Below are positions 1 to 17,859 of a stretch of DNA of 19,074 bases, one piece after another. Numbering within the stretch: the stretch's first letter is position 1; every line of letters begins with the position of its first letter. Both the position numbers and the translations under genes were made by a program. The stretch lies in IMG/VR virus record IMGVR_UViG_2563366969_000006; one strand, written 5' to 3'. This DNA comes from a virus. Taxonomy: Duplodnaviria > Heunggongvirae > Uroviricota > Caudoviricetes. The notes beneath the pieces were generated by a model. It made no database searches, was not told where the DNA came from, and saw only the letters and a list, made by a program, of their open reading frames with translations.

Positions 1-625
1 TTATTTACAAAAAAATGGGGAAGTATTACGGCGATTGCGAAAAGTCTGAAGCGCTTGAATTAAGATAATATAGAAAATCAGATACAACAAAAATGGCAGG
101 TAGATGATGTTAAGATAAATTGGAGCGGGCGAAGGGAACAATACAACATCACACAAGGCCAGTAATAGCGCGAATCCTGCGAGTTCTAAAATCAATTCTA
201 TACACATTTCTATACACATTTATCCCTCGCTTGAGGGTTATGCGTCATCGTTATCGGCTATCTCGCTGGTGGATGATCACGGATGGCCTGATATCTACAG
301 CCGCCTTAAAAAGCTGTACCCGACAAGCATTACTGCGTATCGGGTTCGTTCGCTCTTTCTACTCGTGGCAGATGAGTTTATCGGTGTGATTTTATCGGGC
401 GAGGGTATTGTATCAGGCATCCCCTTTTCTATGCAGATTTGCATAGTTCCGAATGGTGGCGTTATGGAAGCCTCCCATATCAGCATCATGCCCACCAGCG
501 TGAAGTATTTTTTTATTTCGCGGGTGTAAAAATTTGACGAGGCGGGCGGTCCCATAAGCAATGGATTGTAGGGATTTCGCTCCCCCCCTCCTGAATGCAA
601 TTTTTCGTATATATATACAAAACAG

Positions 626-781
626 TGCGGGTTATGCGGGTTACCGGGTTATCTTAGTATGCTAACTATTTTTTGTTCTTTAGTATCAATATGTTGCAAA
701 ATACACTGTTCATTATTCAAGCATCACATAACCCGCAAAACATCCCAAATAACCCGCAAACGCCCCAAAATAACCCGCAAA
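626..781. repeat. Iteron cluster A (putative crr-like or second origin): three tandem direct copies of (T)GCGGGTTA at 626-652, an AT-rich spacer, then three inverted copies ATAACCCGCAAA at 728-739, 749-760 and 770-781 with exact 21-bp phasing
   Basis: Seen directly in the sequence; same 9-mer as cluster B at 11233-11358; degenerate copies (CATCCCAAA, CGCCCCAAA) interleave at about 10.5-bp spacing. Confidence 0.7.
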
Positions 782-1448
782 CACATTGCTGAAAGCAGGG
801 GTTGATAGTTCCACTGGTGCCACAGAACGGCTGAATACGGTAACTGTTGCTGGTGGTCTGTCCTGTTGTCGTTCCAGTCTCATCAAATTGAGAGGCAAGA
901 CAAAGTGTATTTTTGCACTATAGCCAAAGCCTCATAAAACAGAGTTACCCCCACAGGCTGGCAAAAACCATTACCCAACGCAATTAAGTGCGTCAGAATC
1001 GATTACAGCGCGTTCCTGTGGCACGTTGTTGCCGTTCTCAGCAGTGAAAGGAGAGCGTGAAAAGCTCATATCTATTACTGTTGAGGGGTGTAGCGGCATA
1101 TATCGCGAATATCCACGCCCTTAATCCCGATACCGTCACTACGCATTGAGATCCACCAGAAGATTAAGATAGTTTTACCTGAAATTATCCAAATAATTGT
1201 TTTAACTGATTAATTTTTCGAATATCTATTGTTAGGGAATAAATCATCAGATACACCATAAAACGACATCTTTCAGGGTGTAGAAGATGCAAAGCCGATA
1301 CTGAAGAAAAGACAAAGAATATGAATGGCTGGCCACACGATGGAAGGATTGTCCATTGAAGGATCAATCCTAATGGTATAAGTATTAATAAAACCGTGCA
1401 GCGTGCTTTTTTATCTGCGAATTCCCGCCCGGGCGGCGGTGGCATTCG

Positions 1449-1476
1449 TTAAAAACAAGGCCGCGAAAGCGGCCTG
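1449..1476 (-). terminator. Rho-independent terminator closing the large operon
   Basis: On the minus strand, stem GGCCGC / GCGGCC (1459-1474) with a GAAA-type loop, followed by TTGTTTTT, 8 nt after the stop of the 104-aa gene. Confidence 0.6.
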
Positions 1477-1483
1477 TGACATG

Positions 1484-1798
1484 TCACGATAGTTCCGTTT
1501 TGTTGAATTCAATTATATCAAGGTCAGAACTTTCGTAATCCTTACCGAATAAAGCAAAACATATCGCGTCAAGTTCTCTCTTATGTTTGGACGCCCGATC
1601 ATAATTACCACCCCAACAGCAAATGAATCCACCAAGTACTGCTGATTCAAAAAGTAATGATGCTGCATCAATATGTCTGAACCAGGAGTCTATAAGTAAA
1701 GCAGAGAGTGATATTAATGTTCCCCACCCGCCAATCCTTCTCCATTTCTCAGCTTCATATTTAAGAGAAGCAATATATTCAATTTTATCTCTCGTCAT
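1484..1798 (-). CDS. Small membrane protein (104 aa, two predicted transmembrane helices), last gene of the large operon; function unknown
   Basis: ORF with TGATG stop-start overlap to the upstream gene; two hydrophobic segments (IGGWGTLISLSALLIDSWF and ASLLFESAVLGGFICCWGG); lower GC than upstream genes. Confidence 0.6.
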   Translation of the reverse strand: MTRDKIEYIASLKYEAEKWRRIGGWGTLISLSALLIDSWFRHIDAASLLFESAVLGGFICCWGGNYDRASKHKRELDAICFALFGKDYESSDLDIIEFNKTELS

Positions 1799-4554
1799 CA
1801 GTTCCCCACCGCCTTTCCAAAATCCGGTGCTCTACGTGGCGCAATAGCACCCGGTTCCCACCAACTCGTTATGTCGAACTCCCGTTGCGCGCGGTCCCTT
1901 ACTCGATCATTGTAACCAGGGTTTGCCATCTCCTGAAGTTGTTGCAATATCAGGTGATTGGTTATCGCTTTCGCATACCACAGGTTTGCGAATGGGGTGA
2001 TCATGCGGGCTGTTTTCAGTGCATCGGCACCGAATGATGTTTCTTCACCCTGTAGAGCCTTCTGTGGGTTAGTAATCAGTAATTTTGTTAACTGCTCTGC
2101 AAAGCTCAACACAGGGCCACCCATAGTGGCACCGATGCTGGAGCCATATTGCGTATGGTCCTGGAAAATAAAATCACCGTAGATACCGAACGAACCACCT
2201 TTCAGTAAAGCCTGAACCCATGTGGTTGGTTTTGTCATATCCAGCGGATCATTACCATTTAACAAACTGTTCATCTGGATCGCAAACATACCAGCAAGAG
2301 TTGTTCCCCCGATATATGAGGCCAGAAATTTAATGGCCGGAACGGTGTCCAAATCCCGTGTTCTGTTAACAAGTTGCCGAAATCCAGCAAATGGGGTTGT
2401 TTTGAAGAGCATGAAGCTCTTCATTAACTCGCCAGCATCATCACGGGCATATGTATCAATACCCGTAGCGGTGGTCACAGCATTGGTCATCTCACCGTGC
2501 GTAATTCCCAGCAATTTCTGGGCTGCTTCAGCGCGTGCATTACGAATCATGCGCGTGATGGTCTGCTCAGCCTCAGCGTCGAATGCTTCTTTCATCCGTT
2601 TCAGGCGTTCTGGAGGGAGATCTCCAAGGGCTGCCAGTGCCTTTTCACTCCCGGCACGAATCCGGGTAATACGGTCTGCCATAATGTCGGCTATTACGTT
2701 ATCGGGCACAGCGTAAATCGCGTCTGGCGTCATCCCCATATGCCCGGCAGTAGTCATCGGCCTGAGTTCTGCCGCTGCCATGATGGCCCAGTCCTCATTG
2801 CTCCATCCCTTGTTAGCCAGAATGGTTTTATCGGTTCCTTTCATATCGTCCAGCGTCTTAAATTTTCTGGTCAGCTCGCCAATGTTTTTGTACATCAGGA
2901 GACCAAACGACGCTTTGTTTGCGCGGTCCATAGCGATCAGCCCGGACCACTTCAGTGTCTTCTCTGCGAACCAGCCAGTTATGCCGCGAGACAAGTCAAA
3001 CCCGCCCATTTTCGAAACCACAGCAGCATGTGAATCCACCAGCAGACCGAGTTCAGCATTCGCCTTTTTGGCATCTCCACTAAACAGGTTTTTGATAGTG
3101 TTAACGGAAAGCCGCATTCCACCACGGGTAAAGCCCAGCGCCTGCGCATTTGCCCGCATAATTGCCTGGTCGCTGGTTGCTGTCAGTACGCTGGTGCCAA
3201 GCATGGCGCTGGTCATCAGGTTACGCAGACCACCAACTGCTGAAGAGAACACACTCGATGAAGCGACACCATTTAGGCCAGCCATTGAGTTGAACATACG
3301 GGCAACTAATTTGGCCTCATCCTCCATTTCTTTTTTGCGTTTCCCGCCTGTTACTGCGCGCTTATAGATGCGATCCAGTACCAGGGAAAAGTTTCTTTCG
3401 GCGTCCGGACCAAAGGCTTTAACGACGCCCAAATCCCTGGATGATGATTGCAGGTGCGACATCATCACCCCCACCAGCGGCTGCTGAGTGTATCGTTCCA
3501 TATAGGCGAAGTGTGACTGCGCATCCTTGAACGCCATCACCCTGTGCTGAGAACCACGGCTCTTTATTCCTCCGGCTCCCATAAATGTACCAGGCTCAAT
3601 TTTGTTTGCCCCATCAGTGGCCTTCGTTTCAAAGATCGCTTCCAGTGCCTGACGGTACTCGACGTCATTCATAATGCTGCCGTCAGGATTAACGTAATTG
3701 CTGCGATCCTGCGTGTTGTAAGCGTCATCAACCCATTTCTGGCGGGCAAACTCAATCGGTGGCTGGCGACCTGAAAGACGTGCTGTAGCTTGCTCTGCCA
3801 CTGGTAACGATGCCAGCCATTCTTCGCGCCCGGCATTGCGAATAAGGTCAGCATCATCCACATATGGCGTATGCCAGTCTTCTCGCAGGCCTATGTCAAA
3901 GCCATTGTCGTTCATCTCATGACGAACACGGCCTGTTACATCCTTCCAAATCTGTGCAATTTTCTTCGCCAGGGGATTCCCGGTATCTTCGCCATATATT
4001 TCTTTCAGGATCTGGAGTTGTGCAGACTTTGCCGCCTGCCTGTCGAATACACTCCGAAACCGCTGCTCTCCAAGCGCCCTGCTCTGCTCGAAGAATTTGC
4101 GGACGTCATCACCTGCTTTTAGAAGTTCAGCACTGAGCTGACGGGACCAGTCCTGATATGCCCCAATTGCAAGTTCTTCAGCAGAAGTAACGGAGATATC
4201 AGCTTTGTCTCTCGATCGTCGGCCAGCAAAAATAAACTGCTGCAAATTAACAGGTGTCTGCTGATCAGGCGGGATGTTAGCATCGAGAGTGTCAGTAATT
4301 TTACTGATGGCGATCGCATTCTGGGCAACACGCTGTCTTTTCTTGTACACATCATGAACCACACGCTGGCGTACCAGTTCTGCTGCATCCATGTATGTTT
4401 GAGCATCAGGAATACCACTTTTGCCTTCTTTGGCATTCTTTCTGTGCACATGCTGCACAGCTTCTTTGATACGATCTTCAATATTTTTCAGCTCATCAGC
4501 CTTTGGCTGGCGACCAAGTGTCTGCGCAATAGCTTCCACACATGCCTGTTTCAT
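1798..4554 (-). CDS. Large hypothetical protein (about 918 aa), Gly/Ala-rich hydrophobic stretches, no NTPase motif; possibly internal-virion/ejection-like
   Basis: Long ORF. Likely start is the ATG at 4552-4554, preceded by GAGGAA and in a TAATG overlap with the upstream stop, rather than the unsupported ATG at 4575. No Walker A found on reading. Confidence 0.75.
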   Translation of the reverse strand: MKQACVEAIAQTLGRQPKADELKNIEDRIKEAVQHVHRKNAKEGKSGIPDAQTYMDAAELVRQRVVHDVYKKRQRVAQNAIAISKITDTLDANIPPDQQTPVNLQQFIFAGRRSRDKADISVTSAEELAIGAYQDWSRQLSAELLKAGDDVRKFFEQSRALGEQRFRSVFDRQAAKSAQLQILKEIYGEDTGNPLAKKIAQIWKDVTGRVRHEMNDNGFDIGLREDWHTPYVDDADLIRNAGREEWLASLPVAEQATARLSGRQPPIEFARQKWVDDAYNTQDRSNYVNPDGSIMNDVEYRQALEAIFETKATDGANKIEPGTFMGAGGIKSRGSQHRVMAFKDAQSHFAYMERYTQQPLVGVMMSHLQSSSRDLGVVKAFGPDAERNFSLVLDRIYKRAVTGGKRKKEMEDEAKLVARMFNSMAGLNGVASSSVFSSAVGGLRNLMTSAMLGTSVLTATSDQAIMRANAQALGFTRGGMRLSVNTIKNLFSGDAKKANAELGLLVDSHAAVVSKMGGFDLSRGITGWFAEKTLKWSGLIAMDRANKASFGLLMYKNIGELTRKFKTLDDMKGTDKTILANKGWSNEDWAIMAAAELRPMTTAGHMGMTPDAIYAVPDNVIADIMADRITRIRAGSEKALAALGDLPPERLKRMKEAFDAEAEQTITRMIRNARAEAAQKLLGITHGEMTNAVTTATGIDTYARDDAGELMKSFMLFKTTPFAGFRQLVNRTRDLDTVPAIKFLASYIGGTTLAGMFAIQMNSLLNGNDPLDMTKPTTWVQALLKGGSFGIYGDFIFQDHTQYGSSIGATMGGPVLSFAEQLTKLLITNPQKALQGEETSFGADALKTARMITPFANLWYAKAITNHLILQQLQEMANPGYNDRVRDRAQREFDITSWWEPGAIAPRRAPDFGKAVGN

Positions 4555-6614
4555 TATGGGTTCCTCAAGAAGCACGCTGCTGCTACAGAATAAACCTTCG
4601 ATTCGTTCTGGACTGTCTTAATCTGTTCATCCAACTCAGCCAGGAGATCAGAAAGTTTTGTCGGGTTTCCGGTTTCCGGGTGAGCTATAGTCAGCTCAGG
4701 ATTGGCAACAGCCATGTCCCTGGCAGCCATAAGGTCATAGCTGTTGGATGAGAGAACCTGCCCTGTATCTGGATCAACGCTGATGTCCCCTCTGTGTTCA
4801 CCAGCCGATGAGAAAGCACTTTCAGCACGAGGGACAGGCGATTCACTAATTGGCTCTGATGATGTTTCGTATCTGACACCATTTTCTTCAAAAACCTTTT
4901 GTATTTCATGGTATTGCTCTTGGTAAGTATCAGATATATCTGATCGCAATGGACCATCAAGCCCTCGCGCCATCCCCCCAACATTTACAGGCTGACCATC
5001 ATTAAGTTGCCTGTATGCTTCATCCATGGCGTCAACATGGCTGTTGATGCTCTCATTGCTGGTATGAAGCACTGGTGACGATTCAATATCGTAATGAAGC
5101 CCCTCATTCAAAATGTGGGCTGCATCAATATCGCTTGGTTTTATTCTTTCCCTCGCCCGGATACCAAAAACTTTTTCTACTGCGGCTTCCAGTTTCATAT
5201 TGCGAAGACGCATACTTACGAGTAACCGTAACTGCTCAGGTGTAACGGTTCCAACCTGAATACCACTGTATCTGAATATATAGGCTTTAAAACCTGAAAT
5301 AATTTTTTCCCATGATGAAACGCTTGTCTTTAGAGATGGATTTACTGCATGTGCGGCAACTTCTTCAGCGTACAACCACTCAGGATATGTTTCAGGGTAC
5401 TCACCCCTTTTCTTATATTCATAATATTGTGACATCCCATATGCAAATTCAGGATAGTCAGAATGCTTGTTTGCAGATTTAAGTACAGCATTAGCTAGCT
5501 TTCTGGCCTTCCAGTCAGGGTAATGGCGCTGCTCAAGATGAAGCGCCTCGTGATGAAGGGTTTCTAACAGTTCTTCATGGTCTTTTAATCCATTAATATT
5601 TATTCTTATTATTGGTTCTTTTCCGGAAGCTACTGTCACATGACCTTTATTCAGAAGTATTTCTCCATCACTATTTTTTATTGCTGGTTCATTAATAAGT
5701 TCTATTACTCCTGAATCAGATAAATCACGAACCATTGACTCAATGTTACCATCAGGAGATTGCTGATAATGTTCACCAAAAGTTGATTTTATTTCTTCTG
5801 CAGAAATGTTCGACTCTGTACCATCATGGTTATTATGGGTAGTCAGGTGATGAACGCCACCAAAGACCCCGCCTAAAACGGCATCGACTAACATCGCCTG
5901 ACCGTCAAATACCCGGTACTGTTTTGCCATCTCCGTGTAGCCTTTTTCCTCCAGTGTTGCGCCTACTGAGTAACGGTTCAGTCCACCGAATCCGGTGTTG
6001 ATTGCCACACCTGAGGCAATGCGCGTTGCCAGTGTGGTGCCGACGGCAGCGGGTAAGGCCATACCCACAGCATTGAAAAGGCTCTGCTGCGTTGCCAGGT
6101 TACGCGCTGTAGCCTCGTCTACTCCCTTCCCTTTAAAATCCTGATAGGACTGCTCATACGTAGAACTGAAGGCTGTAGCAGCGCCGATGAGCGGACCACC
6201 AAACATAGTTGTTCCGATTGCAGGAACAAATTTACCAAGCTCATTTAATACCTCAGCCGCCATTCCCTGGCTGCCTGCATCAGGCTTCACATAGCTGCGG
6301 GCATCCTGTAACTGTTTTCCGATCGTGTCGTATGTATCATTCAGTGTTTTGTCAGCATCAGGGAACATCTCCCGAAAAATATTAACTGTCGGTGCCACGT
6401 CTGCGGTAAATGCCGGATCGCTAATCAGACGCTTGCTGAATCCGACGGCAGACTGCGCGAGACCGAGAGCCCCCTCCGCCACGCCGCTCAAAAGTGCAGT
6501 ACCTGAACCCTGGAAGGGAGTCGGATCGTAGTCTTCTGGCCTTGCTGGGTTGGCAACTGTTTTGTCGTCAATCCATGCCTGACCTTCTGGAGCCAAAGAA
6601 AAAACATCAGACAT
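4554..6614 (-). CDS. Large hypothetical protein (686 aa) with an HExxH (HEALH) zincin-like motif and Gly/Ala-rich hydrophobic region
   Basis: Long ORF; TAATG overlap with the upstream 843-aa gene; GAGGG ribosome-binding site; ETLHHEALHLEQRH encoded around 5534-5560; no P-loop. Confidence 0.75.
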   Translation of the reverse strand: MSDVFSLAPEGQAWIDDKTVANPARPEDYDPTPFQGSGTALLSGVAEGALGLAQSAVGFSKRLISDPAFTADVAPTVNIFREMFPDADKTLNDTYDTIGKQLQDARSYVKPDAGSQGMAAEVLNELGKFVPAIGTTMFGGPLIGAATAFSSTYEQSYQDFKGKGVDEATARNLATQQSLFNAVGMALPAAVGTTLATRIASGVAINTGFGGLNRYSVGATLEEKGYTEMAKQYRVFDGQAMLVDAVLGGVFGGVHHLTTHNNHDGTESNISAEEIKSTFGEHYQQSPDGNIESMVRDLSDSGVIELINEPAIKNSDGEILLNKGHVTVASGKEPIIRININGLKDHEELLETLHHEALHLEQRHYPDWKARKLANAVLKSANKHSDYPEFAYGMSQYYEYKKRGEYPETYPEWLYAEEVAAHAVNPSLKTSVSSWEKIISGFKAYIFRYSGIQVGTVTPEQLRLLVSMRLRNMKLEAAVEKVFGIRARERIKPSDIDAAHILNEGLHYDIESSPVLHTSNESINSHVDAMDEAYRQLNDGQPVNVGGMARGLDGPLRSDISDTYQEQYHEIQKVFEENGVRYETSSEPISESPVPRAESAFSSAGEHRGDISVDPDTGQVLSSNSYDLMAARDMAVANPELTIAHPETGNPTKLSDLLAELDEQIKTVQNESKVYSVAAACFLRNP

Positions 6615-9145
6615 TATTCAACCCTCACGACAATAGCTTTATTGGTTCTGGGATCTGTTGCCCAGCGTCCGCTACCATTTACAAGCCGATACCGGTTATT
6701 GCCGATATTAACTGGCGTGAAATTTGACACTGCATTTACGTTAAGTCCGGCATCTTTCAGTGCTTGTTTCGCAGATGTGGTATAGCGATCTTTGAAAGTA
6801 GATTTATCCATGCCAAAAGGCATTACAACGTCGCCGCCATTAAAACCATTGTATATACCGCCAGTAGCATACTTCACGGCATCAGCTACAATGTCTGTAT
6901 CAGGCATACTGGTTCTTACCGTAGAGGCATCACCAGATTGATAAGCTATTCCTGCGTAAGCGGCTTTGAAAAGGCTATAACTGATCTGGCGTAACTGCGG
7001 GTTACGGGCAAATGCATTACCTACCTGTTCGTCGAAAGCGTCTTTCATCTTATCTTCGCTCGGCAACTGTACCGGAGTTATGCCCGCATTCTTCATGGCC
7101 TTCGTCGGATTCAGTAGTTGGTCGCCGGAAAGAATAACCTTTGCAACGTCGTACTTGTTCATCGTCGGCTTATACCCGATGAACTGACTATATGGGATCG
7201 TCGGCCTGGTGTTGTCGTACTGGTTATCCGGCGTGCCCAGCAGCAGCGCAGAATAGGCTGTTGCCGCACTGTTCGGAGCAATTACAGATGCCACCTGCCG
7301 TATTGCTGGCGCAGGCAGCTTCTCCCCCATGCTCTGCAACAGTTTAATTGTCTGGTCAACGTTCTGAGTGCCGCGCACCTGCTGTGCCAGCGCAGCCGCC
7401 TCTTCACTGTTGAGGAGTGGGGCATTAATTCCCAACGCGCGTAAGCTTTCCTGCGACGAGAAACGGTTAGCCACCTCGGCAGTGATGTCGTCAGGGTTGT
7501 TGCTGGTGATCGGCTTATAGGCTCCGATTTCCACCGCTGCACTAAACGGATTATTCTGCCTCTGGGTTATTACCTTCGTGGCTGCCGCCGATACCCGGTC
7601 GAATAACTCCGCACGAGACGCATACCCCTCCCCTGTCTCACCAGTATCCGGGCGTAATTGCTCAACATATGCGGTAATGCTGCTTGTCGGCATGTTGCGG
7701 AAAGAGCCTATATACTGTCCGGCGATCTGCAAATTTCTGAACTCGGTATATCGCAGGTTTCCTTCTCTGACACCATAAGCAGCAATGAACTCACCCTCAC
7801 CAGGCGGGTTAGGAAATTCAACGCCACGCATATACGCAGCCGTTGCATCGCGAACCCGGCTTTCGAGCATCGTTCTATATTCAGCCTGCTGCTGTCTGGC
7901 TAATGCATCCGTCTGTCGCAACACGCTGGCCTGATCTGATTCACTTAAAGCATCGAACCAGGCTACACCGGTATAACGTTTATTTTTTGTCGGTAGCTGA
8001 GAAAGCCCCAGTGCGGCACTAACGCCAGCGGCCAATTGCTGATCACTGTACGGCTGACTGCCTTGCTCATGATGAATAATTGCTTTGCACAGAGATTTCA
8101 GTGTGTCAGGATTTGATGCGTCAAGCGGCTGGTCAGGAGTTACACCGAGCTGAGCACATACTGCCCGTATATAAGCATCAGTTTTATTATCATCACTGGC
8201 CGGTGCCCAGCGATTAATTATTTCGCTGATGGTGTCATAACCCTGACGCTGATACGACAGCAAATTGCGACCAAGCGCGCGAATACCGTGTTCAGGGGTT
8301 TCGAATTTGGCAAAGCGACCATCATCACCAGTCTGCCCAACCCACGGATTAGTTTTGCTGTATTCAAGATTGCCGGGGTTATTGTTGCGTATACCGCGGG
8401 TACGATCGGAAGAGCCACTATCTGCTACAGCACGGCGAGATCCAGCAGCAGTATCGCTTAACTCGCCATTTTGCTGTCTTACCTGAAGATAGTTTGCTCC
8501 AATAGCATTTTGAGCAGTTGCTTTTGCTGTTGCTTCTTTAAACTCGATTTTCTTGGCCTGGATTTGCTCGTCGCTCCAGCCATGCGCAATACCGTAATCC
8601 TCAATTTGCTGGAAAGTTTGCGTATTAGCCAATATGTATGCTGCGTTGTCGCCATATAATGCTGAGGCATTTTTACCATTATTCAGCAGTGTCGCCTGAA
8701 ACTGGCCTTCTTCGTAGGCATTTATTTGCCCTATCTCGTACCTCCCGGCCTGCGTAGCGAACTGAATACGCTGCTGCTGCGCCTGCTGCATGAAAGCATT
8801 ACGAGCCTGTTCATCCGGCAGCGACATAGCCAGTTGTTCGATCTGAGCATCAAACTGCTGTGTATACTCATGGCCTTTTCCAATAGCATTTTTCCCTTTC
8901 AGGTTAAGCAATCCTGTTTCAGGATTATTCAGCAGATCACTGCCTGTCTGACTGAGTTTAAGGGATGCCTCCTGAATCAAGGCAATATTGGCACGCTGTT
9001 TTGCCTGACCAAAAACATCAATTGCCTCTGCCCCTGCCCGAACAAAAGCATCACCAATACCTGGCTGAGAAAACGTCTGCAAGCCTGCTGACTGAACTCC
9101 ACGGCTCTCAACCTGACGTCCGGATACTGTTGGTACGACTGGCAT
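6614..9145 (-). CDS. Large hypothetical protein (843 aa), Gln/Ala-rich, with a conserved-looking block GIRNNNPGN...W.G...G.FA.F (possible peptidoglycan-hydrolase-like or virion-associated domain; unverified)
   Basis: Long ORF with a strong AGGAGG ribosome-binding site 6 nt upstream of the ATG; motif block encoded around 8155-8395; no P-loop. Confidence 0.75.
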   Translation of the reverse strand: MPVVPTVSGRQVESRGVQSAGLQTFSQPGIGDAFVRAGAEAIDVFGQAKQRANIALIQEASLKLSQTGSDLLNNPETGLLNLKGKNAIGKGHEYTQQFDAQIEQLAMSLPDEQARNAFMQQAQQQRIQFATQAGRYEIGQINAYEEGQFQATLLNNGKNASALYGDNAAYILANTQTFQQIEDYGIAHGWSDEQIQAKKIEFKEATAKATAQNAIGANYLQVRQQNGELSDTAAGSRRAVADSGSSDRTRGIRNNNPGNLEYSKTNPWVGQTGDDGRFAKFETPEHGIRALGRNLLSYQRQGYDTISEIINRWAPASDDNKTDAYIRAVCAQLGVTPDQPLDASNPDTLKSLCKAIIHHEQGSQPYSDQQLAAGVSAALGLSQLPTKNKRYTGVAWFDALSESDQASVLRQTDALARQQQAEYRTMLESRVRDATAAYMRGVEFPNPPGEGEFIAAYGVREGNLRYTEFRNLQIAGQYIGSFRNMPTSSITAYVEQLRPDTGETGEGYASRAELFDRVSAAATKVITQRQNNPFSAAVEIGAYKPITSNNPDDITAEVANRFSSQESLRALGINAPLLNSEEAAALAQQVRGTQNVDQTIKLLQSMGEKLPAPAIRQVASVIAPNSAATAYSALLLGTPDNQYDNTRPTIPYSQFIGYKPTMNKYDVAKVILSGDQLLNPTKAMKNAGITPVQLPSEDKMKDAFDEQVGNAFARNPQLRQISYSLFKAAYAGIAYQSGDASTVRTSMPDTDIVADAVKYATGGIYNGFNGGDVVMPFGMDKSTFKDRYTTSAKQALKDAGLNVNAVSNFTPVNIGNNRYRLVNGSGRWATDPRTNKAIVVRVE

Positions 9146-9241
9146 TAGTAACCTCCTATTTTGAATCGGGAGTCAGAATTCATAAAACCTGAGTTAGATA
9201 ACATTGGCGTCCCTCTGCTTTGATGCTGTACCAGCGATTCA

Positions 9242-9448
9242 TTACTCACCCCCCGATGCAAAACCATTCTGATTAAGCCAGGCGTTTACGGCATGTCTGA
9301 CAATCTGCGCCACGCCTGGTAATGGCTGATCAGGGTGATTGTTCACATGGTCGATTCTGTACTGCTTAAGGCGCATCACGGTCTGTGCATCCAGATGAAC
9401 GGAACCACCTCTGACATCGCCTGTGTTCAGGTCGTTAATACAATTCAC
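9242..9448 (-). CDS. Small hypothetical protein (68 aa) leading the large operon; possible regulator
   Basis: ORF just downstream of a candidate promoter and upstream of the 843-aa gene; the GAGG ribosome-binding site is unusually close to the ATG, so the start is uncertain. Confidence 0.4.
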   Translation of the reverse strand: MNCINDLNTGDVRGGSVHLDAQTVMRLKQYRIDHVNNHPDQPLPGVAQIVRHAVNAWLNQNGFASGGE

Positions 9449-9480
9449 AGCAATTTCCTCTTACTGACTAAACTATGCAC

Positions 9481-9509
9481 ATTATTGATCTGAAAAAGTG
9501 GTAGATAAA
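9481..9509 (-). promoter_or_regulatory. Candidate sigma70 promoter for the large operon (minus strand: -35 TTTATC, 17-bp spacer, -10 AATAAT)
   Basis: Hexamers read from the sequence between the upstream terminator and the 68-aa ORF; not experimentally supported. Confidence 0.3.
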
Positions 9510-9547
9510 CATATTTCTATCACAAAAACAGATTGATTGATTTCAGC

Positions 9548-9573
9548 CAAAAAAAAGCCGGATTGCTCCGGCT
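9548..9573 (-). terminator. Rho-independent terminator separating the replication/SSB/ProQ block from the large operon
   Basis: On the minus strand, stem AGCCGGA / TCCGGCT with a 4-nt loop, followed by a run of 8 T. Confidence 0.7.
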
Positions 9574-9813
9574 CTGTGCTTACTTCTGGTAGTTACGCCA
9601 TACTGATTTCCCGATCCCATCTATCCCCATTTCTTTTTCAGTGCGTTTAAGCGACCGTTTCAGGTCTTCTAAATTATCCGGTTGCTTCGGTGGCCTCTGC
9701 GCCTTCCTGGAACATTCCAGTCGTCGCATTGATATGTAATACCGTTCCTTGTCAGTTCCCCAACTGCATTACTTCACCCCATCGCGCCGCCGCTCTTCGG
9801 TACAGGGTTTTAG

Positions 9814-10230
9814 TTAGCCTCCGACTCTTCCGTAGTGCTGTTCTGGTGGATTCACATAGCCCCTTTCTTGCAGGTATTCGCGAATATCAGACATCAGGAG
9901 ACGGTTAACCGTGCTCTTGTCTTTTCTCCGGTAAAGGCGTCTGGTGATCATGAAGTAGTTAGCAATGATCTCCGGTATATCCCTGACGCTGATACATGCT
10001 GTATGCTGGTCAATAGCTTCAATCATCTCTTCACGAGTTACAAAAGTCTGGCGTAAACGAGTGATCACACCATGTACATCTGAATGATCATTTATACGCT
10101 TATTTTGGCGCTTCGCGCTCTCGACTGTGACACTGACAACAATGTCAACTCTTTGTTTTTCCGCAATTTCATCCACAATGTGATCACCTGCACGGCGACC
10201 ATGTGCGTGATCATTTCTTACTATTTCCAT
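9814..10230 (-). CDS. Hypothetical protein (138 aa), His-rich N-terminus
   Basis: ORF with GGAGGAG ribosome-binding site; overlaps the 3' end of the ProQ/FinO gene by 20 nt; no family recognised. Confidence 0.5.
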
Positions 10231-10708
10231 TCATCTCCTCCAGTAGTTTTCCTGCGTGCGTCTGTTGTAGTGGTGTTACCTCGCCGCACGGCTGGCCTTT
10301 CAGGTCGTAACGCGCGCCACCAGCTACCAGGGCGCGGTAATAGCGCGGAGTCTGCACATAACGCGCCAGCGTTGCGCGTAGTGTTCCCTGTCCGAGTGAA
10401 ATACCTCTCGCGGCAATATCCTGTATCAGGTCGTCAAATATCCCCACCTTAAGCGGCTTAGGTGATTCCTGGCTGAATAATTCAGGCCATAGCTCAATAA
10501 GACGGTTAACGCGTCTGCGGTTTTTACGCTGCTGTTTGGTCATACGCCGCCGCGGTGTTGCTCCTGTGAGCTTCTGCTGTGTGTTCTGGTTATCTGGCAT
10601 CACTTTATGCGCCGATGTGGTTTTATTCTGCTGCTGCGCCGCCTGTGCTGTTTTCTGCGGCGTGCCGTAAATGCCCTTCGGTTTTCTGTTTATGGTCAGC
10701 TTTGTCAT
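10211..10708 (-). CDS. ProQ/FinO-family RNA-binding protein (165 aa) with a basic N-terminal extension
   Basis: The segment [60 protein letters not shown] aligns by eye with the ProQ N-terminal FinO domain (LKIGIFQDL...LRSALRLYTSSWRYL...RVDLDGNPCGE). Confidence 0.7.
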
Positions 10709-10744
10709 GCCTTCCCCTGTAATTACTCTGTTCGCTGTTGTGAA

Positions 10745-11170
10745 TTAAAACGGTATCCCGTCCCCGTACGGATCATCGTGCTGGCCTGTCTGTTGCTTTG
10801 CCCTGTTCAGTGCATCAGTAGCCTGCCCCTGCTGGCCTTTTTTGCCGCCCGGTCGCGCCGTTCGCGCACTGATTACGCTGTCTGCGATAACCTGCCATCC
10901 CTGCCTCGTTTCGCCGTTCTGGCCCGTCCACCGGCTCACCTGCATGTTACCGGCCACGCTCACCAGTTCGCCTTTGTGGTGTTTTGCCAGTGCGTCAGCC
11001 TGTCTGCCAAACGCCAGGACGGATAACCACATCGTCGCCGTTCCGTCATCTGTCTGATTGCATGGAAGGGGGACCGCCATACTCGCCATCGCCATTTGTG
11101 TGCCCTTGCTGGTGGTCTTTAACTGCGGGTCAGCCACCAGCCGCCCGTAAGCTGATATTTGCGCCGTCAT
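10745..11170 (-). CDS. ssb: Single-stranded DNA-binding protein, divergent short form (141 aa)
   Basis: OB-fold-like N-terminal region, Gly/Gln-rich linker and an acidic C-terminal tail ending DDPYGDGIPF, comparable to the SSB DDDIPF tip; GGAGAA ribosome-binding site. Confidence 0.7.
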   Translation of the reverse strand: MTAQISAYGRLVADPQLKTTSKGTQMAMASMAVPLPCNQTDDGTATMWLSVLAFGRQADALAKHHKGELVSVAGNMQVSRWTGQNGETRQGWQVIADSVISARTARPGGKKGQQGQATDALNRAKQQTGQHDDPYGDGIPF

Positions 11171-11232
11171 GCTGTTTGTTCTCCGGTTTTAACGTGATAG
11201 TTACGCTTGTTTACACTCTTACAGTGAAATTT

Positions 11233-11358
11233 TGCGGGTTACAATCGCACATTTGCGGGTTATAACTGCCGTTTTGCGGGTTACGTGCGGGTTATTAATT
11301 TCCTTTTTAATCATTCAGTTAATTAACTTATGCACAGGATAACCCGCATAACCCGCAA
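11233..11358. repeat. Iteron cluster B (putative origin): TGCGGGTTA at 11233-11241, 11254-11262, 11275-11283 and 11286-11294 (21-bp phasing), AT-rich spacer, then inverted ATAACCCGCA copies at 11339-11358
   Basis: Seen directly; lies immediately 3' of the primase/helicase-like gene; same 9-mer as cluster A. Confidence 0.75.
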
Positions 11359-11380
11359 CTTTTTACCTCACACAGGGAAG

Positions 11381-13507
11381 TTAATCTTCTGCTTCAGGCT
11401 GGAACATCAGCACGTAAAAAATATGTTGCTTCCCGCCAATCCTGCCGAGCGCCTTTTTCTTGTAACGGCGGTCGCCTCCCGCTTCCAGCATTCCGGCTGC
11501 ACTCAACGCGCGGGCAAAGTGAGACGGATTAAATCCCTGTGCTATCTCACCCTCAAACACATGCGGGAACGTGTAAAAACGGAACTCGTCATCTTCGTTT
11601 CTGATACTCCCCTTTCTGTATCCGGCAAGGTCTTTAATCGGTAAATCACGCTCGTCGCTGTTTGGATAGGGAAGGTATCGACTGAACCCGAACGACGACA
11701 AAAACGCCTCAGCCTGTTCAACCATCTGTTTAAATTCCCTGTTGCCCGTGCCGAATTCCTTCACCCAGGCATTAAAGTTATGCTGAACTGCATCACGGCA
11801 CGCCTGAACATCCCAGCCTGTAACATGACCGGAAAGCACAAGCGCGGCCTCCAGTACGGCGAATCTTTCCCCCACACGGTGAACCTGCTCGCCGTAGCTC
11901 TCCGGTATCAGGTTGCGCCACCGCTCGCGACATGCCCTTACCGCGTCCTTTGCCTCCTGCTGGTGGCCTGCCAGCCATTTAACCCACTCACGACCTGCCG
12001 CCCCGTGATTTTCTGTCCAGGCATCTTTTAACGCGTCTGCGTGCGCCTTTCCGGTGCTGTATTCGTGAAACTGCGAGGCCTTTTCCATCGGTACGTTAAG
12101 CAGACGGACAAGCTGCCCCGCTTTAATTTTTATCCCTTCCGTTTTGAGGAATGTTTCAACGTCCATTTCTCCGGTGCTGATTGCCACCGTGCGCCAGTGT
12201 TTTATCTCCCTGTTGCCGCCGTCCTTCGCCCCCTGTAATTTCCCGGAACCGTTAAACAGCGTATAGGCTGACGTGGACACCTCCCGTGCGTTTCCGGCCT
12301 GGCCTATTTCATCCAGGGGTAACAGCCCGTCATTATGTGCTTCGGCCTCGTTGGCGATACCTAACGCCGTTCCGTACCAGGTCAGCCGTTGCGCGTCCGG
12401 CTCTCCCCATAAACTTGATGCAATGTTCTGTGTGGTGGTTTTACCTGCTGATGATTGCTCAAAAAGATGAACCCCGAAGCCGTCAGCACCCACCAGCCCG
12501 ATTAATGGTGCAGATAGCGATACCGCCACACCCAGCATCATGGACGGATTACCACCAGCCAGCCGTGCCACGGTATCGCGCCAGCCCTCCGCTGTTCCCG
12601 CCACGGAATAGCCATTAACAGCGGCAGTTTTTCCGGTAAACAGGATGGGTTTCTCTGATTCACCGATGATCGAACCATCCGGCATGATGTACGCACCAAA
12701 ATGCCACCCCGTTGTTGTGCTTAACTGCCATTCCTCATGGTTTCCGCTTAACTGCATCCAGTCAGCCAGGATAGCCCTGTATTTGCCGTTGGTCGTCACG
12801 TTAAGGCCGTGGTCTTTCAGCAACCGCCAGCCGTCACGGTCACCAATGCCTCCGCACGGGACCGCCATTGTAATGACCTCATGGTTTGCTGGTTTTTTCC
12901 AGCGCATCACGCGGTAATGCTCTTTGCCGATTGTTCCTGTTCCCAGTAGTTCAAGCGGAGAACATAACCACGTCTCAGGCCGGATAATTTCGCCTGACTG
13001 CTTGTCCACTTTGGGCGTTACCCAGAAAACACCATCGACGCGACTTTCAACACGAGGCTTTAATTCGTCATCATAATTTCCGGTGAAATTTGTCTTCGCC
13101 GGAAGGTTGATCACCAGACTGTTACCGCGTTCCGCATCATACTTCAGTCCAGCCATGCGCGGAGTCCAGTCCTCCGGCTGCTGATCAACAAAGCTGCGGT
13201 AGCAACGCGCCTCCTTCACACCCGCCACTGCAAGCAGTGTCGCTATCTGTGTAAGGTGCTGCTCTGATATTTCACCAGCACGATAAATGCGCACGTAATA
13301 GCGTCCTTTGTCGATGATTTGCGTGTCTGCCAGACTCGCCAGTTGTTCCGGTCCAAGAATAACTGGATGTGTATCATCTGCCGCAATATGCTTTCCGGCC
13401 CATTCGCTCCACTCTTTCGCATGTGCCCAGGCATCACTACCCGCAAAGATAATCACCTCCGTCATTTTGTCTTTCGGCTGGTGCTTTAAATTCGGTGCGC
13501 GTTTCAT
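11381..13507 (-). CDS. Replication protein, primase/helicase-like (708 aa; P4 alpha-like role, DUF927-type P-loop helicase domain)
   Basis: Walker A-like SSAGKTT and Walker B-like LLPLDE in the central region; ATGA start-stop overlap with the upstream gene; adjacent iterons. Confidence 0.65.
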   Translation of the reverse strand: MKRAPNLKHQPKDKMTEVIIFAGSDAWAHAKEWSEWAGKHIAADDTHPVILGPEQLASLADTQIIDKGRYYVRIYRAGEISEQHLTQIATLLAVAGVKEARCYRSFVDQQPEDWTPRMAGLKYDAERGNSLVINLPAKTNFTGNYDDELKPRVESRVDGVFWVTPKVDKQSGEIIRPETWLCSPLELLGTGTIGKEHYRVMRWKKPANHEVITMAVPCGGIGDRDGWRLLKDHGLNVTTNGKYRAILADWMQLSGNHEEWQLSTTTGWHFGAYIMPDGSIIGESEKPILFTGKTAAVNGYSVAGTAEGWRDTVARLAGGNPSMMLGVAVSLSAPLIGLVGADGFGVHLFEQSSAGKTTTQNIASSLWGEPDAQRLTWYGTALGIANEAEAHNDGLLPLDEIGQAGNAREVSTSAYTLFNGSGKLQGAKDGGNREIKHWRTVAISTGEMDVETFLKTEGIKIKAGQLVRLLNVPMEKASQFHEYSTGKAHADALKDAWTENHGAAGREWVKWLAGHQQEAKDAVRACRERWRNLIPESYGEQVHRVGERFAVLEAALVLSGHVTGWDVQACRDAVQHNFNAWVKEFGTGNREFKQMVEQAEAFLSSFGFSRYLPYPNSDERDLPIKDLAGYRKGSIRNEDDEFRFYTFPHVFEGEIAQGFNPSHFARALSAAGMLEAGGDRRYKKKALGRIGGKQHIFYVLMFQPEAED

Positions 13508-15616: not shown

Positions 15617-16433
15617 GGCTGCTCACCTCCATGCGGCGGGCTAACCAGCGTTGCGAAAGGCGAATTAATTCAGCTTTCCGCTGGTGGTAGTCCAGGCCTA
15701 ACTCAATCAGCGTGATATTGCTCTGCTCAAGGTAAGAAAGGTGCTCAAGCTGCAACACGCTCATGTGGTCGCGTGGTTCACCTGTGATGCCGTTCGCCTG
15801 CGCCCACTGTTTTGCAGTCATGCCACCCAGCACGATACGCGCCAGCATATTAGCTTCCGTAGTGTAGTGGTGCTGGAGCGTGTTTTTACCCAGTTCAGCC
15901 CGGTACGCCTCCAGCGCGGCACACATTGGCTTAAAGTAGCTGGCTACGGTGATACGGGCTTTCAGTTCCCGGCGTAACGCTGCGGAACGTACAGGCGCTA
16001 CCTTGTGTAGCTCCTCCTCGCATTTGATGAAGTACTGACGAACGGCGCGGCCCTGTTCGGTGCGTTCGATCATTGCCAGTTCTTTCGCCATTCCGACACT
16101 TAACAGATAGTCTTTACCGGGTCTGCCAGAGTGCTTAATCTTGCTGTAAGCCTCGCCATTCGGGCTTTTCCCCAAATTTGGGGAAATTGTTTTATGGACT
16201 GAGTAATCGTACCCAATGGTGAAGTCATATTCAGAGATACGATCAGTGATCCATGTAGAGAAGTCTTTTCCCACGCCCAACGCTTTGTGTAACGCTTTTG
16301 CGCTAACAACAGCGGCTTCACGCCCGCCAATAACGCCGGAAATAACCGGGATAATTTCGCCGAAATTTTGCAGATTCTGGTTTTCAGGCCGAACAAAGCC
16401 CTGCCCCTGTACGGGCGTTTTTCGCAGTTTCAT
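15609..16433 (-). CDS. AntA/AntB-like antirepressor family protein (274 aa)
   Basis: N-terminal segment (AVVSAKALHKALGVGKDFSTWITDRISEYDF) resembles the AntA domain; GGAG ribosome-binding site 5 nt upstream of the ATG. Confidence 0.55.
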   Translation of the reverse strand: MKLRKTPVQGQGFVRPENQNLQNFGEIIPVISGVIGGREAAVVSAKALHKALGVGKDFSTWITDRISEYDFTIGYDYSVHKTISPNLGKSPNGEAYSKIKHSGRPGKDYLLSVGMAKELAMIERTEQGRAVRQYFIKCEEELHKVAPVRSAALRRELKARITVASYFKPMCAALEAYRAELGKNTLQHHYTTEANMLARIVLGGMTAKQWAQANGITGEPRDHMSVLQLEHLSYLEQSNITLIELGLDYHQRKAELIRLSQRWLARRMEVSSHA

Positions 16434-16508
16434 AAAAACTCCGCTATCGAATTAAGTTACTTTTTATTTGCTAGTGGATAGCTTGGGCAATAACCCGTAG
16501 CTATTTAA

Positions 16509-16775: not shown

Positions 16776-16918
16776 ACCCTCAGGCCTAATGGTTACCGGA
16801 AGGAAATTAACCCTAAGGGTGATGGTAATCGGGAGGAAATCTACCCTAAGGGTGATGGTAAAATTGACGGGGAAGATAAAAAAATACCCTCAGGGTAACA
16901 GTAAATCACCCTCAGGGT
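16776..16918. promoter_or_regulatory. Array of four palindromic operator-like sites ACCCT-N-AGGGT (16810-16820, 16843-16853, 16886-16896, 16908-16918) plus a partial site at 16776-16784, in the alpA upstream region
   Basis: Seen directly; sites 1-2 share the longer unit ACCCTAAGGGTGATGGTAA; located in the 227-bp intergenic region 5' of alpA. Confidence 0.55.
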
Positions 16919-16933
16919 ATGCGGTATGGTGCG

Positions 16934-17737
16934 TTAATCCGGCTTTGCGTTCTTTTGGCTGTTGTCTCGGTTAATAGGGCAGGCAGTCCTCTCTATGAGC
17001 GTTGCAAGAGCATTACTTGCCCCCCACTGCTTAAGCTCCCTGGTTATCGCTTCTTGATTTCCCCTGGTGGCAAAATCATTTTCTGGATCGTAATTGGCCC
17101 ACTCTCTGTTTCTAATCTCAATAGCCTTAGCTAATGGGTCTTTATCCCAGTATTTATATAAGTGTATCGGGCGCTCTTGCTCTAACTGCTCTATCCTTGC
17201 CCTTAACTCTGCGTTTTCTCTTTCCAGCATTGCGATTTGGGATAATAAATCATCCTCTGTACGCAACTCTTTCTTTTCAATATCGCGTCCTTGTACCTCG
17301 TCATTTTCAGAAGAGTTAGCGCCTTCCAGCTTCGTTAACGCGTCAAGGACATCGGGAAAAATTGCGAAAATTTCACCCCTTATAAATCCAATGTTCTCAA
17401 ATTCGGGATCTTCCCAATAACCGGACACCAGAAAACCATTTTCATCCCTCTCACCAGGTAAACAACCATGTTTCCGAACCGCATCCAGATTTCTATAAAG
17501 AACATCATAATCAAATTCATCCCGATACGGGTTACAAAAAGATTCCAACAGCTTAAATTCATTTACTGTGTACAGGCGGATATGTTCTCCGCTTATTCTC
17601 CTGAGTATCCAAGTTATGAGATCTGAAACATCATAATCATCACCAGCGACCTTAAGCACGACCTCAAGAAATTCACGTAAAGAAATAAAATCTTTTTTGT
17701 ATTCGTTTAATTCGGCATGAATATCAATCATACGCAC
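16934..17737 (-). CDS. Hypothetical acidic protein (267 aa) with predicted coiled-coil, between integrase and alpA
   Basis: ORF with GAGGTG ribosome-binding site; the segment LLSQIAMLERENAELRARIEQLEQER looks like a coiled coil; no enzymatic motif recognised. Confidence 0.6.
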   Translation of the reverse strand: MRMIDIHAELNEYKKDFISLREFLEVVLKVAGDDYDVSDLITWILRRISGEHIRLYTVNEFKLLESFCNPYRDEFDYDVLYRNLDAVRKHGCLPGERDENGFLVSGYWEDPEFENIGFIRGEIFAIFPDVLDALTKLEGANSSENDEVQGRDIEKKELRTEDDLLSQIAMLERENAELRARIEQLEQERPIHLYKYWDKDPLAKAIEIRNREWANYDPENDFATRGNQEAITRELKQWGASNALATLIERTACPINRDNSQKNAKPD

Positions 17738-17859
17738 ACCTCAGCGTCCTCTACTGTAGTGGCTGTGCCAGCCCGTCGAGGTATACGGTTTTTCGGGAGC
17801 GACCCTAGACACAGCTTTTTCTTTCGTCGCTCAAAGTCTACTACTGTATACTCAACCAG

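Follow-up and report, generated by a model that had tools for sequence, protein, structure and literature searches.

Two mirror-image iteron modules, possibly halves of one replication origin, flank the cargo genes of an Escherichia coli phage satellite

The window analysed here, the whole 19,074-nucleotide stretch of IMG/VR record IMGVR_UViG_2563366969_000006, is a single 19.1-kb phage satellite of the phage-inducible chromosomal island (PICI) type, integrated at a tRNA-Gly gene of Escherichia coli. It contains two clusters of the 9-mer TGCGGGTTA: cluster A (626–779), which lies beside a cos site, and cluster B (11233–11357), which lies next to the gene of the replication protein Rep. Comparison with related islands suggests that these clusters represent one bipartite, Rep-bound origin of replication, whose two differentiated, mirror-image halves are separated in this element and would still cooperate in cis. 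We put the probability of this reading at about 0.5.

Results

Exact copies of TGCGGGTTA occur on the plus strand at 626 and 635 and on the minus strand at 729, 750 and 771, making up cluster A, and on the plus strand at 11233, 11254, 11275 and 11286 and the minus strand at 11340 and 11349, making up cluster B. Counting matches with no more than one mismatch, the window contains 18, versus 4.05 expected, and none of 200 shuffled sequences got to 18. These positions and the shuffle test bear out an initial, sequence-only reading of the window, according to which two clusters with one 9-mer and 21-bp phasing lie about 10.5 kb apart. The phasing refers to a three-copy array in each cluster, while the tandem pairs are spaced by 9 bp. 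The phased copies have a longer common consensus, TTTGCGGGTTAY. Counts in other E. coli DNA likewise agree with enrichment in clusters: across 373 kb of E. coli loci, 71 exact copies lie in such clusters and 6 are isolated, so TGCGGGTTA is not simply a common motif. One further exact copy in the window, at 6996–7004 within an 843-aa open reading frame (ORF), fits the background rate. The lone copy that had been placed upstream of the AntA-like gene is really TACGGGTTA at 16491–16499, with one mismatch; about four such matches are expected by chance, and we give it no weight.

Each cluster consists of an AT-rich spacer between oppositely oriented sets of iterons. The sequence-only reading saw the same layout in both, but the order is in fact reversed. 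In cluster A, a plus-strand pair is followed by the spacer and a minus-strand array; in cluster B, a plus-strand array is followed by the spacer and a minus-strand pair. The clusters are thus mirror images, and a repeat search scores them as inverted repeats (725–781 versus 11231–11287; 619–643 versus 11340–11364). Their parts, termed modules A and B below, are as follows.

601..623, no strand: nearly palindromic (TA)n box TTTTTCGTATATATATACAAAAC, separating cos from the first iteron at the outer end of module A
626..652, plus strand: module A tandem iterons, TGCGGGTTA at 626 and 635, with a degenerate third copy ACCGGGTTA at 644–652
653..728, no strand: module A AT-rich spacer, carrying the integration host factor (IHF) core consensus WATCAANNNNTTR at 684–696
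729..779, minus strand: module A phased array of three iterons (729, 750 and 771) at 21-bp intervals
11233..11294, plus strand: module B array, with 21-bp intervals between the iterons at 11233, 11254 and 11275 and a fourth iteron at 11286
11295..11339, no strand: module B AT-rich spacer, with a DnaA-box-like sequence TTATGCACA at 11328–11336
11340..11357, minus strand: module B tandem pair of iterons, lying 24 bp from the stop codon of rep
11381..13507, minus strand: Rep, a 708-aa DUF927 (Pfam) protein, putative initiator-helicase

Both clusters very probably bind the same replication protein, because the iteron at both sites changes along with the C-terminus of Rep across relatives. Iteron sequence varies together with the last ~45–110 residues of Rep, and at least seven specificity classes are seen among the related loci, which are designated here by L numbers.

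TGCGGGTTA class: the window, L002, L005 and L032–L034
CTTGTCCCA class: L008 (Escherichia albertii)
GTTGTCCCA class: L003
GTTGCCTCA class: L004
GTTGTCTCA class: L006 and others
Further classes, in other loci: GTTGGTTCA, ACGGGTTA and GTCGGTTC

Over the last 45 residues, Rep proteins are 76% identical in pairs that share an iteron, versus 41% in pairs that do not. The Rep proteins of the window and L003, whose iterons differ, are 95% identical in the core and 29% identical in the C-terminus. Distal modules bear the matching iteron in three classes, represented by the window with L002 and L032–L034, by L008 and by L004. This pattern suggests that the C-terminal ~45–110 residues of Rep are likely the iteron-reading domain.

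The core of Rep (residues 214–603) matches PDB entry 8TCH, 'Pathogenicity island protein' (phmmer E = 2.2e-14; profile search, 1e-16), and Rep also matches PDB entry 5DGK (E = 2.5e-5). On these grounds we propose that Rep is a self-loading hexameric helicase-initiator of the type found in PICIs and Staphylococcus aureus pathogenicity islands (SaPIs). The Rep proteins of SaPIs are hexameric self-loading helicases, in which a C-terminal winged helix reads iterons that flank an AT-rich region (PMC9371898). The PICI/SaPI replicon is made up of a Rep initiator-helicase and an origin directly 3′ of rep (Ubeda 2007 and 2012, as cited in PMC9371898); in Gram-negative PICIs, this origin comprises two iteron sets around an AT-rich region (Fillol-Salom 2018, PMC6092414). 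Cluster B lies 24 bp 3′ of the rep stop (11381) and has opposite iteron sets around an AT-rich region, and because of this arrangement and the homology of the Rep core, we equate it with the PICI origin already described.

The sequence-only reading had placed this cluster directly 3′ of a primase/helicase-like gene. The adjacency holds, but that gene has no primase domain. Pfam finds DUF927 only, and the Zn-ribbon, Toprim, D5_N, DUF5906 and Pox_D5 domains, all of which are found in the alpha protein of phage P4, are absent from Rep. Zn-ribbon and Toprim domains do occur in the longer relative L006. Among the window's genes examined by Pfam, PHROG and RefSeq annotation, no primase was found. 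The first ~130 residues of Rep form a confidently predicted domain (predicted local distance difference test, pLDDT, about 80–89).

DUF927 Rep proteins encoded in E. coli and other Enterobacterales number more than 1,800. Related E. coli islands have a common backbone and other cargo. They include capsid-forming PICIs (cf-PICIs), some of which sit in prophage terminase genes. In most relatives, module B and an adjacent mirror-image module, A′, form one palindromic double origin of ~350 bp. This is the arrangement in 16 of 19 informative loci of other Enterobacterales, where B is followed directly by A′, ending in a TA box, 3′ of rep. The adjacent layout is also seen in L006 and in L005, a cf-PICI of the O157:H7 strain Xuzhou21 with the gene set of the prototype, EcCIEDL933 (bioRxiv 10.1101/2022.09.08.507074). 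An EDL933 genome record matches only the B/rep part of a split-type junction, consistent with the adjacent layout. The earlier suggestion that the cargo lies inside the replicon core therefore comes close to what the comparison indicates, the two modules being contiguous in most relatives.

The split layout seen in the window is found again in the cf-PICIs L002 and L032–L034, at three integration sites and with A located after terL, and in the E. albertii locus L008, with a different iteron. Eight IMG/VR loci are split, with gaps of 7.5–10.5 kb; with the cf-PICIs and E. albertii included, gaps range from 2.2 to 10.5 kb, and the orientation is always mirrored. Two loci, L003 and L004, carry A′ and B plus a distal A. 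Among 5,426 complete E. coli genomes, 160 have a block of cos, TA box and module A, 104 have a split-type junction of SSB, B and rep, and 141 have an adjacent A′ and B block; roughly 100–160 of these genomes have the split layout.

We also considered whether the inverted repeats bound an invertible or transposon-like segment. All related loci keep the cargo co-oriented with rep, with no sign of inversion, and we rejected this possibility. In one decayed island, L035 of strain STEC307 (16001–16279, 21925–22315), cos, the TA box and module A are kept, and module B and the C-terminal part of Rep are lost. A related island might still act in trans to replicate or package remnants of this kind.

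The two modules are not redundant copies, because the IHF consensus occurs in A-type modules and never in B. Of 27 A/A′ modules, 12 have it, and these belong to several iteron classes; of 26 B modules, none does. These counts overstate independence, because the loci are related. In the window, 684–696, in the spacer of A, is the only perfect match to the IHF core consensus. The TA box is similarly confined to the outer edge of A or A′, where it is found in L002, L003 (twice), L008, L009, L010, L012 and L027, loci that differ in iteron class; B modules lack it. We regard the box at 601–623 as a candidate unwinding element. The spacer of B has its own box, TTATNCACA, at the same place in six of six TGCGGGTTA-class loci, which is weak evidence because these six loci are closely related.

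This differentiation bears on whether cluster A might be a second, fully independent origin, such that the island has redundant initiation sites and no cooperation or looping between them. Both clusters do show the full grammar of iterons, AT-rich region and iterons, and SaPI origins of such form are described as a complete ori in the literature that PMC9371898 cites. The three modules of L003 and L004 also suggest that modules can be freely added. However, only A has the IHF site and TA palindrome, and in this class only B has the DnaA-like box. Moreover, nearly all relatives keep exactly one module of each kind, in mirrored orientation, which simple redundancy does not predict. We therefore consider an independent second origin unlikely.

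It is also possible that cluster A is a non-functional relic, left by recombination between related islands or when an insertion separated the halves of an ancestral double origin, with only B in use. The distal module of L003 has iterons of the L008 type, unlike those of its own A′ and B; the decayed L035 retains A and cos after loss of B and the Rep C-terminus; and islands with B only exist. All three observations fit a relic. But every iteron of A is exact, even though divergence has left about 60% of the spacer columns invariant in the seven loci compared. When these seven A modules are aligned, 42 of 53 iteron columns are invariant, versus 61 of 152 other columns (Fisher p = 1e-6). The spacer of A in the window is clearly homologous to that of the adjacent A′ in L005. 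The block of cos, TA box and A persists at 78–100% identity in all 160 genomes that have it, at several integration sites, and in split islands A is the sole A-type module. Because the modules are differentiated, co-occur almost universally and retain exactly conserved iterons in A, we judge a relic to be quite improbable.

Module A is flanked on its outer side by the cos site and by the distal attachment site (att).

120..138, no strand: distal att core TTGGAGCGGGCGAAGGGAA, a 19-bp direct repeat of the tRNA-Gly 3′ end, which lies just past the right end of the window
526..553, plus strand: phiP27-type cos site, 27 of 28 positions matching the phiP27 cos block, with the 10-nt cohesive-end equivalent GAGGCGGGCG at 539–548

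Homology to the cos region of phage phiP27 extends over 509–591, and the sequence annotated as cos in the phiP27 record, GGGGCGGGCG, corresponds to 539–548. The island that carries this cos site has no terminase or HNH gene, which implies packaging by a phiP27/HK97-like helper or a co-resident cf-PICI.

This location raises the possibility that cluster A is a site on which Rep operates for some purpose other than initiation, such as coupling to packaging at cos, an operator or promoter directed into int, or copy control by titration or handcuffing, as at P1 incA and F incC. Cluster A lies 78 bp from the cohesive-end sequence in the window, L003 and L008, and by geometry, leftward transcription from A in the circular form would cross att into int. 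In L009 and L012, however, cos is more than 6 kb from A′, and in most relatives A′ abuts B rather than cos. No sigma-70-like promoter was detected at the TA box, and copy-number control is not expected, by our own reasoning, as PICIs replicate in a burst after induction. Such a non-origin role is the least probable of the explanations weighed here.

Several other candidates at this site were set aside. A sigma-70 promoter at the TA box is among them, none having been detected. A structured RNA or cruciform at A was set aside, since Rfam at relaxed thresholds gave only noise, and DNA folding of the TA box and spacers was not significant. A truncated rep gene to the left of A is improbable: this region holds cos and a fragment resembling rlfB, and RefSeq annotates no gene in it, although 1–625 was not compared directly with the Rep C-terminus. 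The fragment, located between att and cos (307–377), comprises 70 bp with 84% identity to part of the replication-linked rlfB of phage P1 and is probably a gene remnant. On the other side of module A, ~200 bp away, is a conserved non-coding element, GCGTCAGAATCGATTACAGCGCGTTCCTGTGGCA (955–1025), with a terminator-like hairpin on the minus strand (997–974). By eye, this element also appears in L003 and L004.

Cluster A could in principle be the remnant of a second island integrated in tandem. The window is 99.9% identical to a chromosomal island adjoining tRNA-Gly in E. coli Z1323CEC0019, and this chromosomal locus, L001, contains only two att copies, which enclose an island of 19,118 bp. Cluster A lies ~490 bp from the distal att and inside the island. 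With only two att copies and A between them, cluster A is internal to one island, which rules out the tandem remnant.

The hallmarks of a PICI are present, namely int (Pfam), AlpA (PF05930), the int-alpA RNA, 19-bp tRNA-Gly att repeats, a length of 19.1 kb and a phiP27-type cos. All main genes are on the minus strand. Their order is int, the int-alpA RNA (RF02996), a 267-aa ORF, AlpA, AntA and BRO-N proteins, an Icd-like protein, DUF4222, the 708-aa DUF927 Rep, cluster B, SSB, ProQ, a PerC pseudogene and an operon encoding proteins of 843, 686, 925 and 104 aa. Further features of the island are listed here.

17748–17815, minus strand: int-alpA RNA motif RF02996 (Rfam, 46.9 bits), between int and the next ORF
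10745..11170, minus strand: SSB, at the head of the group of genes lying between modules B and A
1484..9145, minus strand: cargo operon between the modules, encoding the 843-, 686-, 925- and 104-aa proteins
1458–1475: terminator at the end of the cargo operon

Upstream of alpA, at 16789–16854, are two tandem 33-bp direct repeats, 85% identical, which may be regulator-binding sites of the int-alpA control region. We considered a 138-aa ORF as a possible packaging redirector of the Rpp kind, but it shows no similarity to two similar-sized small ORFs of the island EcCICFT073; this is a weak test, as the two were not matched to RppA.

The cargo proteins are homologous to p18, p19, p20 and p21, which are internal virion or ejection proteins in the temperate podoviruses phiV10 and epsilon15 (Uetakevirus). 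They match PHROGs 992, 1145 and 684 with E values as low as 1e-295, and the 925-aa protein shares 27% identity with phiV10 p20. Podovirus core proteins and a siphovirus-type (phiP27) cos make an odd combination in a PICI-type satellite. A stretch of 67 bp that includes the terminator (1414–1480) is 96–98% identical to phiV10, TL-2011b and other Uetakevirus genomes, whereas the proteins encoded upstream are only ~27% identical, which suggests a recent exchange at the terminator.

Discussion

Here, we present a model for the two iteron clusters of this satellite, in which they are halves of one origin. In this model, Rep would read TGCGGGTTA via its variable C-terminal domain. Cluster B is the canonical PICI origin, and cluster A would be its mirror-image partner, made up of a (TA)n palindrome, tandem iterons, a spacer with an IHF site and a 21-bp array. 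In this lineage, SSB, ProQ and the cargo operon lie between the halves, placing A beside cos and the distal att. After excision, Rep would occupy both modules, which would act jointly in cis on a circle with arcs of ~10.5 and 8.4 kb. The analysis shows the anatomy of the clusters, their covariation with Rep, their conservation and the homology of Rep; that Rep binds A, that the modules cooperate or form a loop and that IHF takes part are inferences.

How the two halves would act together can be envisaged in two ways. Module A may serve as an IHF-bent, easily melted loading site, with B acting as a tether for Rep by way of Rep-Rep pairing, similar to P4 ori/crr or R6K. Alternatively, each module may load the helicase by itself.

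Several observations weigh against a bipartite origin. L020 and L021 have B only, or B plus a stump of A′, and EcCICFT073 has a compact origin, with no iterons near cos, which implies that a distal module is not needed in PICIs generally. In L003, the iterons of the distal A only partly match the island's own Rep, being the CTTGTCCCA of the E. albertii lineage rather than the rep-proximal GTTGTCCCA; a distal module can thus survive as a relic of recombination. Because the TGCGGGTTA-class split islands are related to one another, a single ancestral rearrangement may account for their constant geometry. Lastly, AlphaFold models of the Rep C-terminus are of low confidence (pLDDT 46 and below 50), too poor to display a winged helix. 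L003 is also of interest in its own right, as a small tRNA-Pro island with three origin modules (16997–17150 versus 19331–19650), and its foreign distal iterons are evidence of modular recombination between islands.

A stronger version of the bipartite model is that the origin of this large PICI/cf-PICI lineage is obligately so, with tethering by the rep-proximal B and melting at an IHF-bent, (TA)n-flanked A both needed in cis and with Rep-Rep pairing over 2–10 kb. We regard this version as doubtful, if conceivable. If it were correct, a long-range mechanism like that of P4 ori/crr would have arisen in an unrelated family of helicase-initiators, and the whole late/cargo module would sit inside the satellite's origin, next to cos.

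The system has much in common with the known PICI/SaPI replicon. B lies 24 bp 3′ of rep, where its opposite iteron sets enclose an AT-rich region, the Rep core has a pathogenicity-island protein of solved structure as a homologue, and iteron class tracks the variable C-terminus of Rep; int, alpA, the int-alpA RNA, a tRNA att and cos are present as well. It differs in having a second, differentiated, mirror-image module, 10.5 kb away and next to cos, and in a Rep that lacks a recognisable primase domain. The rep gene of EcCICFT073 and its adjacent ori region have been reported to support plasmid maintenance (PMC6092414); we looked to that island for a precedent of the distal module, but it has none. 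Cluster B is the part already known. For its partner, module A, and for a second or distal iteron cluster in PICIs or its displacement, we found no description in the searchable literature.

Likewise, the window resembles the cf-PICIs in its common regulatory and replication backbone, TGCGGGTTA iterons and Rep C-terminus, and L002 and L032–L034 in particular in the same split layout of A and B. In contrast to cf-PICIs, it has no capsid, portal or terminase genes and carries homologues of podovirus internal virion proteins instead. The cf-PICI gene set (capsid, portal, protease, head-tail connector, HNH, TerS and TerL) is carried by L002, L005 and L032–L034.

A parallel with the ori and crr sites of P4 had been drawn from the sequence of the window alone. 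As a functional analogy it is fair, extending to the repeat sites and the grammar of their units. In the P4 record (NC_001609), the same 8-mer (type-1) repeats occur at two sites 4.5 kb apart: crr (4291–4590), which adjoins attP and directly follows alpha on its 3′ side, and ori (9086–9809). In both systems, then, two cis regions at a distance of kilobases carry the same short repeats in both orientations, and one of the regions comes directly after the replication gene, on its 3′ side. Each crr unit is a tandem pair with 9-bp spacing followed by inverted copies, as in modules A and B, and P4 too is a cos-packaged satellite; the two have in common a P4-type integrase. The parallel does not extend to membership of the P4 family, given the initiator and the gene content. 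Rep is unrelated to alpha by BLASTP (E = 0.12) and by domain content, and the iteron differs. In P4, crr consists of two direct 120-bp repeats, whereas the window has one module per site, mirrored, and the modules of its relatives are usually contiguous. Neither sid, delta, psu, epsilon nor the cI RNA was found in the RefSeq annotation of the identical locus, in Pfam and PHROG scans of the main ORFs or in an Rfam scan.

Certain plasmid origins provide another point of comparison. In R6K, with gamma and the distant alpha and beta origins, in P1, with oriR and incA, and in F, with incB and incC, one initiator acts on identical iterons at separated sites. IHF sites and DnaA boxes occur in the AT-rich origins of these replicons, and initiator-mediated looping or pairing is an established mechanism. 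Unlike those replicons, the satellite has an initiator of the SaPI Rep helicase type, rather than a winged-helix dimer of the Rep_3/pi type, and by our reasoning it replicates in a burst after induction, not under copy control.

PICIs and cf-PICIs rank among the main vehicles for gene transfer in Enterobacteria, and current descriptions give their origin as one compact site 3′ of rep. If two halves do work together 8–10 kb apart, definitions of the minimal replicon and synthetic PICI designs must include the distal module, and annotation pipelines should seek a second Rep site near cos. The satellite would then be a tractable bacterial example of how loading sites can cooperate over long distances, for a self-loading helicase like those of the minichromosome maintenance (MCM) and superfamily 3 (SF3) type. 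Such cooperation would also explain the conservation of a cos-proximal block in roughly 3% of complete E. coli genomes.

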